Translations under genes and position numbers: made by a program
In this document: in pieces, positions 51,955 to 57,857 of the stretch
Layout of the letters: every line of letters starts with the position of its first letter
How positions within the stretch are numbered: position 1 is the first letter of the stretch
Assembly (NCBI GenBank): GCA_938010045.1
Contig: CALLFZ010000020.1
Location: 38,754-102,753 of the forward strand
Direction: 5' to 3'
Source: an uncultured bacterium
Lineage (GTDB): Bacteria > Verrucomicrobiota > Kiritimatiellia > PWTM01
Length of the DNA stretch: 64,000 nt
The notes under the pieces: generated by a model
What the model saw: the letters and a program-made list of their open reading frames with translations, nothing else
Told to the model about the DNA's origin: nothing
Database searches by the model: none

Positions 51955-52911
51955 TCAGCCAATGCCCTCAAACAATGCGGTGGACAAGTACCGCTCGCCC
52001 GCGTCGGGCAGAACCACGACGATCGTCTTCCCCGCCATCTCCGGCTCACGCGCAACGCGCACCGCCACCGCGGCCGCGGCACCGCAGGAGATCCCGCACA
52101 GAATCCCCTCTTCGCGCGCGAGCCGTCGCGCCATTTCAATCGCTTCCTGGCTATCCACCTGCTCCACCCGGTCCACGAGCCCGAGGTCCAGCACATCGGG
52201 TAGGAAGCCCGCGCCGATGCCCTGAATCTTGTGCGGACCGGGTTTCAACTCCTGCCCGGCCAGCTTCTGGGAGATCACCGGACTTTCGCGCGGCTCCACC
52301 GCGATGGAGTACAGCGGACGTCCGCGCACGCGCTCGAAATAGCGCGACACGCCCGTGATCGTGCCCCCCGTCCCCACGCCGGCCACGAGCACATCCACCT
52401 GTCCCTCGGTATCGTTCCAAATCTCCGGCCCCGTGGTGGCCTCGTGAATGGCGGGATTCGCGGGATTCTTGAACTGTTGCGGCAGGAAATAACGCTCGGG
52501 ATCCGAGGCCGCAATCTCCTCTGCGCGCCGCACGGCGCCCCGCATACCCTCGCTGCCGGGGGTGAGGACGAGACGCGCGCCGAACATGGCCAGTACCCGA
52601 CGGCGCTCGAGGCTCATCGTCTCGGGCATCGTTAGCGTTAGCGGATATCCGCGAGCCGCCGCGACGAACGCGAGCGCGATACCGGTATTGCCGCTCGTCG
52701 GCTCGATGATCTCCATCCCTTGGCGCAAAACACCTCGCTGTTCCGCATCCCACACCATCGAGGCGCCGATGCGGCACTTCACCGAGTACGCCGGATTTCG
52801 CCCCTCAATCTTCGCGAGAACCGTCGCCTTCGCGTCACCCACCACGCGGTTCAGCCGCACCAGGGGAGTCCGCCCGATGGACTCCGAATTGTCGGCAAAG
52901 ATCATGCTCAT
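51955..52911 (-). CDS. cysK: Cysteine synthase A (O-acetylserine sulfhydrylase)
   Basis: [17 protein letters not shown]...[12 protein letters not shown] is the PLP-lysine region. Confidence 0.9.
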
Positions 52912-54152
52912 GTTCGTGTGCTCCCTTCGGACCCGTCGTCACGCCCGGATCTGCCGTTCTCAGGCCTCCCCGACAGCGGCCGCCCGGCCGCCGTCGCACC
53001 CGCCGGTGCGGCATCGGCAGCCAACGCCTGCTCCAGATCGCCCATCAAGTCGTCCGGATGCTCGATGCCGACCGAAAGTCTCACGAGATGGTCGGAAATA
53101 CCGCGCGCGCGCCGTTCGGACGGCGGAATTGAGGCATGGGTCATGCGCGGCGGGTAACACACGAGCGATTCCACTCCGCCCAGACTCTCCGCCAGCGCGA
53201 ACACGCGCAGACGACTAACGAACCGCTCGATGGCCGGGAATCCGCCGCGCAACTCGAAACTCACCATCCCGCCGCCGCCCGCCATCTGTCGGCGCACAAG
53301 CTCGGCCTGCGGATGGTCCACGAACCCCGGATAGTACACCCGCTCCACCGATGGATGACGGCGCAGCCATTCGGCCACCATCGCCGCGTTCCGACAGTGC
53401 GCTTGCATCCGCACCGCCAGCGTCTTGAGCCCCCGCAGCGCGAGCCAGCAGTCCCACGGCCCCGGCACAGCGCCGAACGCGTTCTGATACAGCCAGATGC
53501 GCCGGCCCACCTCCTCCTCCCGCCAAACCACGGCCCCTCCGATCAGGTCGCTGTGACCGCCAATGTACTTCGTCGTGCTGTGCACCACGAGATCCGCACC
53601 GAGCTCCAGCGGCCGCTGCAACCAGGGACTCGCAAACGTGTTATCCACCGCCAGCAGCGCGCCGTGCTCCCGCGCGATCTGCGCCACCGCCGCGATGTCC
53701 ACCAGCTTCAGCAGCGGATTCGTCGGCGTCTCGATCCAGATCAGCCGCGTTGAAGGTCGCATCGCGGCACAATACGCCTCTGGTTCGGTCGTCCTCACAT
53801 AGTCGAACACAAGGCCCCACGGCCGAAAATAGCGCTCGAACAGGCGGTAGGTGCCGCCATACAGATCGTCGCCGGCGATGACGTGGTCGCCCGGCCGCAG
53901 CAGGTGAAGCACGGCCGCCGTCGCCGCGACACCGGAAGCGAACGCCGCGGCCCCCGCGCCGCTTTCCACGGCCGCCAGCGCCGTCTCCAGCGCCGTCCGC
54001 GTGGGATTGCCGGTCCGCGAGTATTCGTAGCCCCGCGGACGTCCGATGCCGTCTTGCTGATACGTCGACGTTTGATACACCGGCACCGTGATCGCCCCCG
54101 TTCGGCGGTCCGGTTCCTGACCCGCGTGAATCGCCAGCGTTTCAAACTTCAC
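52908..54152 (-). CDS. Cystathionine gamma-lyase / gamma-synthase family PLP enzyme
   Basis: The Cys/Met-metabolism PLP family is indicated by YSRTGNPT...[15 protein letters not shown] (TKY lysine). Confidence 0.85.
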
Positions 54153-55540
54153 AGTCCGGCTCCCAGATCCGACTCCGGCTCATCCCGACGCATGATGAAG
54201 AAATCAATCACGTCCATCTTCGTCACCACGCCGACCGGCGTGCCGCCGCGCGTCACTAGGATCGCCGGCGCGCCGGCCAAAAACCCGCGATAGGCGGTGC
54301 CAACCTCAACGTTCTCATCGAGCTCGGGCAGCGGCCGGCCCATCACCGCGCCCACCTCCTGGTTGCTCGCATCGATGCCGTCCAGCAGCAGCTTCATGAT
54401 CGTGGCCTCTTGCAGGCTGCCCACGGCGCATCCGTTCTCGATCACGGGCAACTGTGAGATGTTGTAGACGTGCATCAACTCAACGGCTCGCCGCAGCCGA
54501 TCGCGCGGTGTGACCGCGATCAGGTCGGGCATCACGTGCTTCAGCCGCAGCACATCGGCCAGCGTGCGCCGACGCCGGTGGGACGGCTCCCAAAATCCGT
54601 GCTCACGCATCCAGTCGTCGTTGAAGCATTTCGTGAGGTAATTGCGCGCGGTGTCGGGCAAGAGCACGACCACCAGCCGCGGTTTGCGCATCGTCTCGGC
54701 ATATTTGATGGCCGCCGCCACAGCCGTGCCGGACGAACCGCCAGCGAGGATTCCCTCCTCGCGTGCGAGACGACGCGCCATGAGGAACGACTCGCGATCG
54801 TTGACGCGGACCATTTCGTCCACCACCGGTCGGTCGAAGGTACGGGGCACGAAGTCTTCTCCGATCCCCTCCACCAGGTACGTCCGCGGCTGACCGCCGG
54901 AGAGCACGGAGCCCTCGGGATCGGCCCCGACAATCTGAATGTCCGGATTGCGCTCCTTCAGATACCGCCCCACACCGGAGATGGTGCCGCCCGTACCCAT
55001 GCCGGCCACAAACACGCCGACCTGACCGCCGGTCTGCTCCCAGATCTCGGGACCGGTGGAACGGTAGTGCGCGGCAGGATTTTCCGCGTTCATGAACTGG
55101 TTGGGACGGAACGCGCCCGGGATTTCGCGGGCGAGTCGGTCGGCCACCCCGTTGTAGCTATCGGGCGAGTCGGGCGGCACATCGGTGGCCGTGACCACGA
55201 CCTCGGCGCCGAGCGCCCGCAGCAGTCGCATTTTGTCCTCGCTCATCTTATCGGGCATCACCACGATGAGCCGATAGCCCTTGACCGCCGCCACCAACGC
55301 CAGACCGACACCCGTGTTGCCCGCCGTCGCCTCGATGATCGTGCCGCCCGGTTGGAGGTGGCCCGCCCGTTCCGCGGCTTCGATCATCGCCAACGCCGGA
55401 CGGTCCTTCACGCTGCCGCCAGGGTTGAGAAACTCTGCCTTGACGCAGATCGGCGAGTCGACGTGCGCCGCGATGCGGCGCAAGCGGATAAGCGGCGTGC
55501 GGCCGATCGCCTCAAGGACCGATCCGCAAATGCCCATCAA
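54149..55540 (-). CDS. Cystathionine beta-synthase (PLP domain + tandem CBS domains)
   Basis: A CysK-like catalytic domain (NPGGSVKDR...ATAGNTGVGLA) is followed by two C-terminal CBS domains. Confidence 0.82.
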   Translation of the reverse strand: MMGICGSVLEAIGRTPLIRLRRIAAHVDSPICVKAEFLNPGGSVKDRPALAMIEAAERAGHLQPGGTIIEATAGNTGVGLALVAAVKGYRLIVVMPDKMSEDKMRLLRALGAEVVVTATDVPPDSPDSYNGVADRLAREIPGAFRPNQFMNAENPAAHYRSTGPEIWEQTGGQVGVFVAGMGTGGTISGVGRYLKERNPDIQIVGADPEGSVLSGGQPRTYLVEGIGEDFVPRTFDRPVVDEMVRVNDRESFLMARRLAREEGILAGGSSGTAVAAAIKYAETMRKPRLVVVLLPDTARNYLTKCFNDDWMREHGFWEPSHRRRRTLADVLRLKHVMPDLIAVTPRDRLRRAVELMHVYNISQLPVIENGCAVGSLQEATIMKLLLDGIDASNQEVGAVMGRPLPELDENVEVGTAYRGFLAGAPAILVTRGGTPVGVVTKMDVIDFFIMRRDEPESDLGAGL

Positions 55541-57351: not shown

Positions 57352-57419
57352 TGTGGTGTTCCTTTCTTTTGGATTGGTGGTTCGTCCCATTAGGCCAACA
57401 CGGCTGATCGTGTCACCGC

Positions 57420-57857
57420 CTAAATCTGGAAATCTTGGACCAACTCACTACATCGCGCGTGATAGTCATTCATCAACCCGGCAAGCGTGACGCCCCTCAG
57501 CTCGACCGCCCAAGACGCCGCCAGCCGCTGGCCGATGTCCCTCAACACGGCATTGAACGCCGGATCGTTCGCCGGGTCCAAGCCGTCCAGCCAGTCGCTC
57601 CATGGTCCGTCGCACGCCTCAATCACGTCGGCCAACGTGATGTCCGATGGCGGATGCGCCAAGCGGAAGCCGCCTGAGGGTCCGCGGGCAGCGACCACCA
57701 TCCCTGCCTTCTGCAACGCCGACGCCGCCAACCAGAGATACTTCTCCGAGAGGCCGTGACGTCGCGCGATTTCATGAACTGTGGACGACGCCCGGTTCGG
57801 CCGCATGGCCAACTCGGCCAGGAACCGAAGCGCATACCCAACTCTCTTCGTCACATG
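57420..57857 (-). CDS. Rrf2 family transcriptional regulator (CymR/IscR-like)
   Basis: [18 protein letters not shown]...[30 protein letters not shown] is an Rrf2 wHTH. Confidence 0.8.

Follow-up and report, generated by a model that had tools for sequence, protein, structure and literature searches.

The stretch of DNA analysed here, a window of 64,000 nucleotides on contig CALLFZ010000020.1 of an uncultured bacterium of the Kiritimatiellia (Verrucomicrobiota, lineage PWTM01), carries six consecutive genes on the minus strand at 51955-57860. They encode, in this order, an Rrf2-family regulator, the homocysteine synthase MetY, an OsmC-like protein, a cystathionine beta-synthase (CBS), an enzyme of the cystathionine gamma-lyase/gamma-synthase type (CGL/CGS-type) and the cysteine synthase CysK. 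We propose that these genes constitute an autoregulated sulfur amino acid operon, controlled by a CymR-like Rrf2 protein together with CysK and co-expressing an OsmC-like thiol enzyme, and we consider this reading as a whole to be probable, with some reserve. The sequence comparisons themselves show the identities of the genes, the architecture and conservation of the locus, the absence of a cysteine triad from the regulator, the motif in the tail of the regulator and the linkage of OsmC-like genes to metY. The six genes are as follows.

57420-57860, minus strand: Rrf2-family regulator, 146 aa (PF02082, TIGR00738)
56047-57351, minus strand: MetY, O-acetylhomoserine sulfhydrylase (homocysteine synthase), 434 aa (TIGR01326)
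55544-56014, minus strand: OsmC-like two-cysteine protein, 156 aa (PF02566)
54149-55537, minus strand: cystathionine beta-synthase with C-terminal CBS (Bateman) region, 462 aa (TIGR01137, PF00571)
52908-54152, minus strand: cystathionine gamma-lyase/gamma-synthase-type pyridoxal phosphate (PLP) enzyme, 414 aa (PRK07811)
51955-52911, minus strand: CysK, O-acetylserine sulfhydrylase A, 318 aa (TIGR01139)

Architecture and promoter of the operon

The order of the genes was read from the list of open reading frames, and gene calls made independently on an identical public copy of the contig gave the same six coordinates. An earlier note on this DNA had named the six minus-strand genes and joined them in one compact unit headed by the Rrf2 gene; Pfam and NCBIfam agree with the names, and the short or overlapping junctions, the single strong promoter-like site and the conserved gene order bear out the unit. 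The boundaries required adjustment, the top of the operon moving from 57857 to 57860 and the upstream intergenic region from 57858-58115 to 57861-58115, while the remainder of that description was confirmed. The ATG of the Rrf2 gene lies at 57860-57858, and the orthologues begin at the same codon. From the Rrf2 gene downwards, the junctions measure 68, 32, 6, -4 and -4 nt; the start of the CGL-type gene overlaps the stop of the CBS gene by 4 nt, as does the start of cysK the stop of the CGL-type gene.

Identical sets of six genes, with the same order and similar spacings, are present in L004 and L089, both of them Kiritimatiellae metagenome-assembled genomes, and in L029, an uncultured bacterium of more distant relationship, and shorter versions occur in the Verrucomicrobiota (MetY-OsmC-CBS) and the Latescibacterota (MetY-OsmC-CBS-CGL). 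The closest named relatives of the Rrf2 and OsmC-like proteins carry a Kiritimatiellae annotation. It could be argued that the six genes are neighbours rather than one transcription unit, the Rrf2 gene being monocistronic or controlling something else, as the 68-nt gap between the Rrf2 gene and metY, which is the largest, could hold a promoter, no Rrf2 gene adjoins the enzyme genes in L009 and L067, and in L208 and L210 a related regulator is transcribed divergently from the operon that it targets. However, an 8-kb scan found no promoter-like or terminator-like site in that spacer, and the order and short spacings of the genes persist where the identity of the Rrf2 protein to that of the window falls to 68% and 32% and where the flanking intergenic DNA is unalignable. 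In the same scan, with shuffled sequence as the control, terminator-like matches within the unit were at or below chance (3 found, 4.3 expected). We find separate transcription units very unlikely, and co-transcription of the six genes, as judged from the architecture, is well supported.

Two of the related loci contain additional genes. In L009 (1664-7671; Verrucomicrobiota), which is without an Rrf2 gene, the order is cysK-mnmA-(LarE-like ATP pyrophosphatase gene)-metY-osmC-cbs, and in L029 (2821-5000) a LarE-like gene and a radical SAM gene lie upstream of the Rrf2 gene; relatives thus have sulfur-transfer genes alongside the cluster.

Directly upstream of the Rrf2 gene lies the only strong sigma-70-like site of the 8-kb scan (TTGACA-16 nt-TAGAAT, 57917-57890), which matches the consensus at 11 of 12 positions. 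No match to a S-adenosylmethionine (SAM) riboswitch or any other riboswitch was obtained from Rfam at E <= 1 within 49000-61000. The upstream region contains the following elements.

57917-57912, minus strand: -35 hexamer TTGACA, from the promoter scan
57890-57895, minus strand: -10 hexamer TAGAAT, 16 nt downstream of TTGACA
~57883, minus strand: transcript start predicted from the sigma-70-like promoter
57877-57871, minus strand: likely ribosome-binding site GGGAAAG, read in the sequence
57912-57930, minus strand: conserved 19-nt block CGAATCGAAAAACTTGACA, comprising the -35 hexamer and 13 nt upstream of it; candidate operator and/or UP-like element

The alignment of upstream regions took in five lineages, with Rrf2 proteins that share 68-85% identity with that of the window. 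A sole block is conserved among these five diverged orthologous regions, CGAATCG(A/T)(A/C)AAACTTGACA, at a fixed distance of 51-70 nt before the ATG, and a TAnnnT -10 element is kept at the same position in the orthologues. The block was found in every orthologous locus retrieved and is single-copy in the 64-kb window, where 0 matches are expected by chance. Overlapping the -35 hexamer, it is the obvious candidate for an operator or for an UP-like promoter element.

The Rrf2 regulator and its C-terminal tail

Both family models place the regulator in the Rrf2 family, PF02082 with 90.8 bits (cutoff 30) and TIGR00738 with 91.6 bits (cutoff 73.3). Its AlphaFold2 model, with a predicted local distance difference test (pLDDT) score of 89.8, has the expected helices and is of low confidence only in the last few residues, which suggests that the tail is flexible, as expected for a docking tail. 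The earlier note had called the protein CymR/IscR-like, had suggested Fe-S or redox sensing and had recommended a search for the three cysteine ligands of a cluster. In an alignment to the IscR and CymR structures, the ligand triad is absent: the protein contains only Cys83 and Cys137, and no cysteine falls in the region aligned with the ligand loop of IscR. The same applies to the whole of the window's clade (the window protein and four close orthologues), in which all three ligand positions are occupied by Gly, a gap, or Ala/Asn. The sensing claim is therefore not upheld, and of the double label the CymR side stands, with no triad and an invariant [F/Y]-x-Ile tail.

An Fe-S or redox sensor of the IscR, NsrR or RsrR type, which would tie cysteine and methionine synthesis to oxidative or iron-sulfur status, nevertheless has several observations in its favour. 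The closest solved structure (4cic, 56 bits) is that of Thermincola potens IscR. Within the window's clade, all five members keep Cys83 and four keep Cys137, and in S. aureus CymR a single cysteine serves to sense oxidants. Moreover, the triad is present in the wider family (97 of the best 120 homologues) and in the positional orthologue of L029, which is 32% identical to the window protein, has the SEKYLW motif and the C-terminus in common with it, and contains C-x6-C-x5-C as TDCIEDAAGCDLSATC. The replacement of all three ligand positions in the window's clade opposes this explanation, as do the scores of the IscR, NsrR and RirA models, which lie at 36-56 bits against cutoffs of 182-275 (equivalog models of the Fe-S sensors: IscR 50.2 vs 207.55, RirA 55.6 vs 193, NsrR 36.5 vs 182), and the gene calls, which place no Fe-S assembly genes nearby. 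We judge such a sensor to be improbable. The triad in L029 and its absence from the window's clade suggest that this clade has lost the cluster.

The preferred CymR-like reading draws on the tail of the protein. The window Rrf2 ends in ...DFQI and the L029 orthologue in ...NYEI. Of the 1770 relatives returned by a profile search, the best 120 were used for the tail and cysteine statistics: 104 of these 120 have a [Y/F]-x-Ile end, 97 have the triad C-x(4-9)-C-x(4-7)-C and 81 have both. Ile146 is invariant in 42 homologues picked from the tail-rich match list. In S. aureus, the active site of CysK receives the C-terminal Ile of the CymR (...YMFYI) and CysE (...DDYII) tails with nanomolar affinity, and CymR peptides bind CysK with a KD of 25 nM (bioRxiv 10.1101/2024.09.19.614015). 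For Bacillus, the model is that CysK stabilises the complex of CymR with DNA and also senses O-acetylserine, through which the state of the cysteine pool is read (PMC2940859). The CysK encoded in the window keeps the two segments that contact C-terminal Ile peptides, namely TSGNTG (the Asn loop) and QQFxNPANP, and by its sequence is a CysK of the canonical peptide-binding type. Given the lack of a ligand triad and the presence of a CymR/CysE-type C-terminal tail, the window Rrf2 most likely works like CymR without being a CymR orthologue, with the CysK of the operon as its O-acetylserine-sensing co-repressor.

More distant members of the Rrf2 family show comparable surroundings. All three that were examined adjoin a CysK-sized PALP gene and genes for Cys/Met PLP enzymes, and one of these loci, cysK-rrf2-mnmA, resembles the Bacillus cymR neighbourhood. 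In L208 (2148-3464) and L210 (2175-3497), the operons divergent from the distant Rrf2 relatives contain genes for a PALP enzyme, a pair of Cys_Met_Meta_PP enzymes, a cysteine desulfurase-like aminotransferase and a conserved protein of 438-440 aa without a Pfam match, which may be a component of sulfur metabolism. The relatives of the window Rrf2 that yielded the tail statistics (P0126-P0240) form a large family of proteins of ~147 aa, for the most part without a name in the source databases; those with both the tail and the triad (81 of 120) may join an Fe-S cluster and a CysK-docking tail in one regulator.

The enzymes, the OsmC-like protein and the downstream spacer

With MetY and CysK for direct sulfhydrylation, and CBS and CGL for reverse transsulfuration, the enzyme genes cover both routes, as the earlier note had proposed. 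MetY is recognised by TIGR01326 (657.6 bits vs 495.1) and matches T. maritima MetY (PDB 7kb0) with 569.5 bits, and it narrowly misses the equivalog PRK08248 (670 vs 726). The cystathionine beta-synthase satisfies TIGR01137 (536 vs 510.25), with 278 bits to PALP and 38.7 bits to PF00571 (one CBS domain), and its residues 6-447 align full-length with M. tuberculosis Rv1077 (424 bits). CysK is assigned by TIGR01139 (451 vs 351), the CysM models scoring under their cutoffs, and it aligns full-length with the best-matching solved cysteine synthase A chains at 462-464 bits; these include 5j43, the E. coli CysK:CdiA-CT complex. The gamma-enzyme falls under PRK07811 (536 vs 513), a model named gamma-synthase and derived from the mycobacterial MetB family, and its best solved relatives are the bacterial cystathionine gamma-lyases 4ixs and 6k1n (471-490 bits). 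By its sequence the enzyme may work as a lyase or as a synthase; the lyase reading draws on the 4 nt that its gene shares with the CBS gene and on the lack of a metC gene. The gamma-lyase-type protein ends in an extension of low complexity, ~35 aa long (52908-53015) and rich in Ala, Gly, Arg and Ser, which is absent in the 390-aa orthologue of L004; the 413-aa orthologue of L089 is long enough for it.

The combination of CBS with a gamma-lyase also allows a different purpose to be envisaged. On the model of the cbs/cse operons of pathogens, the module could mainly serve thiol and hydrogen sulfide (H2S) homeostasis or defence, CBS and the gamma-lyase making H2S from cysteine and homocysteine, the OsmC-like protein detoxifying peroxides, and MetY and CysK recapturing sulfide. 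H2S production by CBS and CSE as a stress defence is established, the CBS and CGL-type genes are translationally coupled through their overlap, the closest solved relatives of the gamma-enzyme are lyases as stated above, and the unit includes a protein of antioxidant type. MetY and CysK, two of the five enzymes, are nevertheless net sulfide-assimilating, related MetY-OsmC pairs lie in biosynthetic, SAM-repressed methionine operons, and the tail of the regulator is the mark of a cysteine-supply sensor. We give little credence to a defence unit of this kind and retain the biosynthetic operon under CymR-like control.

The OsmC-like protein is a member of the OsmC/Ohr superfamily (PF02566, 62.7 bits vs 27.5). 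Its AlphaFold2 model (pLDDT 84) is matched by Foldseek with a probability of 1.0 to many OsmC/Ohr structures (1nye, 1qwi, 1n2f, 6ebg) at TM-scores of 0.6-0.75, and the nearest structures, ahead of canonical OsmC/Ohr, are the structural-genomics entries 2opl, 1lql and 2onf, which have no assigned function. Cys55 and Cys127 (within GCLNV and RCPVSDN), Arg23 and Glu46 are invariant across 28 homologues; the Ohr/OsmC catalytic signature is intact, with two cysteines at the peroxidatic and resolving positions, an NPxE motif (Glu46) before the first cysteine and an invariant arginine. The characterised subfamilies are not reached, as the protein scores 19.7 against 88.85 for Ohr (TIGR03561) and 71.3 against 95 for the OsmC-related (seleno)protein model NF041052, and a comparison with E. 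coli OsmC by sequence gives E = 0.84. The label of redox-stress OsmC/Ohr protein, used in the earlier note, needs revision in that the protein is neither a canonical OsmC nor an Ohr; it belongs to a separate OsmC subfamily, one that is strongly conserved across phyla (52-65% identity).

In a survey of 80 species-representative loci, the OsmC-like gene of this subfamily has metY directly beside it on the same strand in 10. The pair occurs in three architectures: MetY-OsmC-CBS and further genes in the Planctomycetes-Verrucomicrobia-Chlamydiae (PVC) group and the Latescibacterota; OsmC-MetY in Alkaliflexus and Geofilum; and MetY-OsmC-MetX in the Bacteroidota, with a MetX-aspartokinase-homoserine dehydrogenase fusion in L056, L069, L080 and L085 and a separate metX-like gene in L065. 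Each of the five Bacteroidota loci with the order MetY-OsmC-MetX has a SAM-I riboswitch directly upstream of metY, at 54-80 bits against a gathering score of 44.4. The MetY-linked OsmC proteins fall into two clades of a neighbour-joining tree; linkage is seen for 13 of the 15 proteins inside these clades and for 0 of 68 outside. The association of MetY with OsmC is thus real and recurrent. The earlier note was correct in placing the OsmC-like gene in the middle of the operon; its suggestion that this placement couples the operon to stress needs recasting, since the MetY-OsmC pair is no peculiarity of this operon but recurs across several phyla, some of which have it behind SAM riboswitches.

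Two further contexts were observed in the survey. In L069 (Tenacibaculum adriaticum, 5266-5557), a SAM-II riboswitch lies on the opposite strand ~115 nt from the SAM-I riboswitch, so that the two classes stand back to back. In 17 Bacteroidales loci (L012, L016, L019, L028, L037 and 12 more; ~6200-6900), the OsmC gene is accompanied by a divergent Crp/Fnr-type regulator (cNMP_binding and HTH_Crp_2), which suggests a separate, regulator-linked paralogue lineage.

The recurrent pairing raises the question of what the OsmC-like protein contributes. Peroxiredoxins and peroxidases are common in sulfur-starvation (sulfate-starvation) regulons; a peroxidase function is plausible, and by default, on a conservative view, the protein would be a thiol peroxidase that sulfur-limitation regulons have taken up. 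In SAR11, osmC was the transcript most induced on sulfur limitation (50-fold) and lies with bhmT downstream of a validated SAM-V riboswitch; the response was not seen under iron or nitrogen limitation, and the authors offered no firm explanation for it (PMC5069961). Besides this work, we found nothing in the searchable literature that links OsmC with O-acetylhomoserine sulfhydrylase, or OsmC-like proteins with methionine biosynthesis.

Rather than a general peroxidase, the protein might be a dedicated partner of MetY, for instance a persulfide or sulfur carrier, or a reductase, which would deliver sulfide equivalents to O-acetylhomoserine sulfhydrylation or use its two cysteines to free homocysteine from a mixed disulfide. 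The linked proteins fall into two coherent clades apart from paralogous clades of the same phyla, the pair occurs in both gene orders as well as in three architectures, and the Bacteroidota gene sits inside SAM-I-riboswitch methionine operons, between metY and the metX fusion (four Flavobacteriia-type loci) or the metX-like gene (L065). The specificity of the SAR11 osmC response for sulfur limitation agrees with such a role (PMC5069961). The catalytic signature of Ohr/OsmC peroxidases is intact, however, linked and unlinked members are about equally similar (52-61% identity), and most metY genes work without such a partner. The protein-bound sulfur donors HcyS and CysO serve other MetY and CysM systems, which is in favour of a partner; sulfur transfer by an OsmC fold is not known to have a biochemical precedent, and peroxidases are frequent in sulfur-starvation regulons. 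We hold a dedicated partner to be doubtful. A combined version is slightly more doubtful still, namely that the MetY-linked OsmC clades, so far unrecognised in this role, act as a dedicated two-cysteine sulfur-relay or reductase partner in homocysteine synthesis instead of as a stress peroxidase, and that the Rrf2 family is a widespread class of regulators with a dual input, from an Fe-S cluster and from a CysK-docking tail, of which the window's clade has kept only the CysK input.

Downstream of cysK, ~880 bp are without a credible gene. The inverted repeats of this region are entered as one feature.

51205-51706, no strand assigned: non-coding spacer with two hairpins (51205-51283 and 51636-51706) resembling repetitive extragenic palindromic (REP) elements and built on TGGGGACAGGCAC

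The two hairpins fold as RNA at -45.9 and -39.2 kcal/mol (z-scores -2.4 and -3.2). The 12-mer TGGGGACAGGCAC has 13 copies in the window with at most 1 mismatch, against 0.62 expected, and these always lie between genes; the REP-like sites are 51205-51706, 16321-16354 and 29023-29516. The spacer hairpins may be where the operon ends, or they may add to the stability of the mRNA. An open reading frame of 271-277 aa after cysK was considered as a seventh gene and rejected, since it has no Pfam match, is rich in Arg and Pro and is filled with REP-like repeats; as called by the gene finders it is probably spurious. Further downstream, a small minus-strand gene (50715-51077; 107-120 aa) with a lipoprotein-like N-terminus and no Pfam match has a promoter-like site of its own (51105-51076) and is kept beside an M17 peptidase gene in L089.

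Proposed mechanism and comparison with known systems

We infer co-transcription of the six genes, an Rrf2-CysK complex, an operator and a chemistry for the OsmC-like protein, and propose that they act together as follows. One sigma-70-type promoter, with its start at ~57883, would transcribe the operon. MetY would convert sulfide and O-acetylhomoserine into homocysteine, CBS would condense homocysteine with serine to cystathionine, and the gamma-lyase-type enzyme would release cysteine from cystathionine, following the homocysteine-to-cysteine route of yeast and mycobacteria. CysK would form cysteine directly from O-acetylserine and sulfide and, in addition, would be the sensor subunit. The cluster-less Rrf2 repressor is proposed to dock its flexible ...DFQI tail in the active site of CysK, and the resulting complex would hold DNA more stably, at a binding site likely to overlap the conserved -35 block. 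Under a shortage of cysteine or sulfide, O-acetylserine would accumulate, the tail would be displaced and the operon would be derepressed. The OsmC-like protein, which has two cysteines and would be expressed along with MetY, is proposed to be a thiol enzyme, most likely a hydroperoxide or thiol peroxidase, and it could provide protection when thiol pools are low or while reactive homocysteine and cysteine form.

A number of observations weigh against this proposal. The tail by itself is no proof of a purely CymR-type mechanism, as most relatives of the regulator have the tail plus the cysteine triad, and the CymR equivalog NF047409 gives 57.1 bits against a cutoff of 195, with only residues 10-97 aligned. 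The conserved block has no clear palindrome, and it may be no more than a -35 hexamer with an UP element, or a site to which another factor binds. A comparison of the promoter by eye with the published B. subtilis CymR box and with IscR sites gave no convincing match. A scan of the metagenome collection with GAATCGWMAAACTTGACA returned 112 matches, which were essentially due to chance and lay on unrelated, AT-richer contigs, and revealed no further members of a regulon; the sole orthologous promoter among these matches is that of L179 (same contig as L092), and one match lies inside a MetY coding sequence, where its reverse complement encodes VKFVDS. No operator common to the window and the distant Rrf2 relatives L208, L209 and L210 was found, and L208 and L210 share another motif near their divergent operon. 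Genes for the source of O-acetylserine (cysE), for metX and for sulfate assimilation were not seen in the gene-called parts of the window (all but ~21-28 and ~40-45 kb), which elsewhere hold only lipopolysaccharide/heptose, AraC, transporter, ribosomal and chaperone genes. As regards the OsmC-like protein, no characterised member or measured activity was found for its subfamily, the nearest structures being "hypothetical", and the subfamily also occurs in unrelated contexts, for instance with the Crp/Fnr regulators of the 17 Bacteroidales loci, with SppA and with GcpE.

The enzymes of the operon are all textbook enzymes and its regulator most likely reuses the known CymR-CysK logic, so that the operon is a tidy example rather than a surprise. 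Its wider value lies in two outputs, which we consider the most useful: the C-terminal Ile as a marker for CysK-dependent Rrf2 regulators, and the cross-phylum linkage of MetY and OsmC. The [Y/F]-x-Ile tail marks a large, mostly unannotated group of Rrf2 proteins outside the Firmicutes as probable CysK-dependent cysteine sensors, and most of the tail-bearing proteins also have the Fe-S motif, which makes the integration of Fe-S status and cysteine supply by one protein testable. The occurrence of the OsmC subfamily in methionine operons, in at least three architectures and echoing the induction of osmC in SAR11, points to a conserved role in homocysteine/methionine synthesis, of which we found no description in the searchable literature.

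The closest known counterpart of the operon is the CymR-CysK system of B. subtilis and S. aureus. The two have in common an Rrf2 repressor without an Fe-S cluster, an aromatic-x-Ile C-terminal tail of the type taken up by the CysK active site, control, here proposed, of cysK and of homocysteine-to-cysteine genes (mccAB in Bacillus), and family members whose loci contain cysK and mnmA. In contrast to that system, the window Rrf2 is ~30% identical to CymR and fails NF047409; the regulator, CysK and the targets would belong to one autoregulated operon instead of a dispersed regulon; an OsmC-like gene, metY and the gene of a true CBS with its Bateman module would be among the targets; the candidate operator differs; and the host is a PVC bacterium rather than one of the Firmicutes. 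The IscR/CymR-like Rrf2 proteins of the Gram-positive type (Thermincola potens IscR, 4cic; Clostridium perfringens Cpe1786) are the best structural and sequence match to the window Rrf2, and they resemble its wider family, which is mostly of the three-cysteine type (97 of the best 120) with loci containing cysteine desulfurase and mnmA. They differ from the window's clade, which appears to have lost the ligand cysteines and heads an amino acid biosynthesis operon, not isc/suf.

The OsmC-like protein has in common with the OsmC/Ohr thiol peroxidases the fold, the two cysteines at the peroxidatic and resolving positions and the NPxE motif before the first cysteine, and stands apart from them in a separate subfamily, below the cutoffs of the Ohr and OsmC-related models. 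In the bhmT-osmC-ordL locus of SAR11 ('Candidatus Pelagibacter ubique'), an OsmC-family gene is likewise co-regulated with homocysteine/methionine enzymes and metY (PMC5069961), with a SAM-V riboswitch instead of a protein repressor and with osmC beside bhmT, not metY; the comparison of SAR11_1172 with the window protein is made at the level of the OsmC family. The enzymes themselves find their counterparts in yeast Met17-Cys4-Cys3 and in M. tuberculosis Rv1077 (CBS) and Rv1079 (MetB), where a MetY-type homocysteine synthase, a CBS with a CBS-domain pair and a gamma-lyase-type enzyme also occur. Unlike in those organisms, the genes of the window lie in one operon with a canonical CysK, and therefore both routes to cysteine would be co-expressed.

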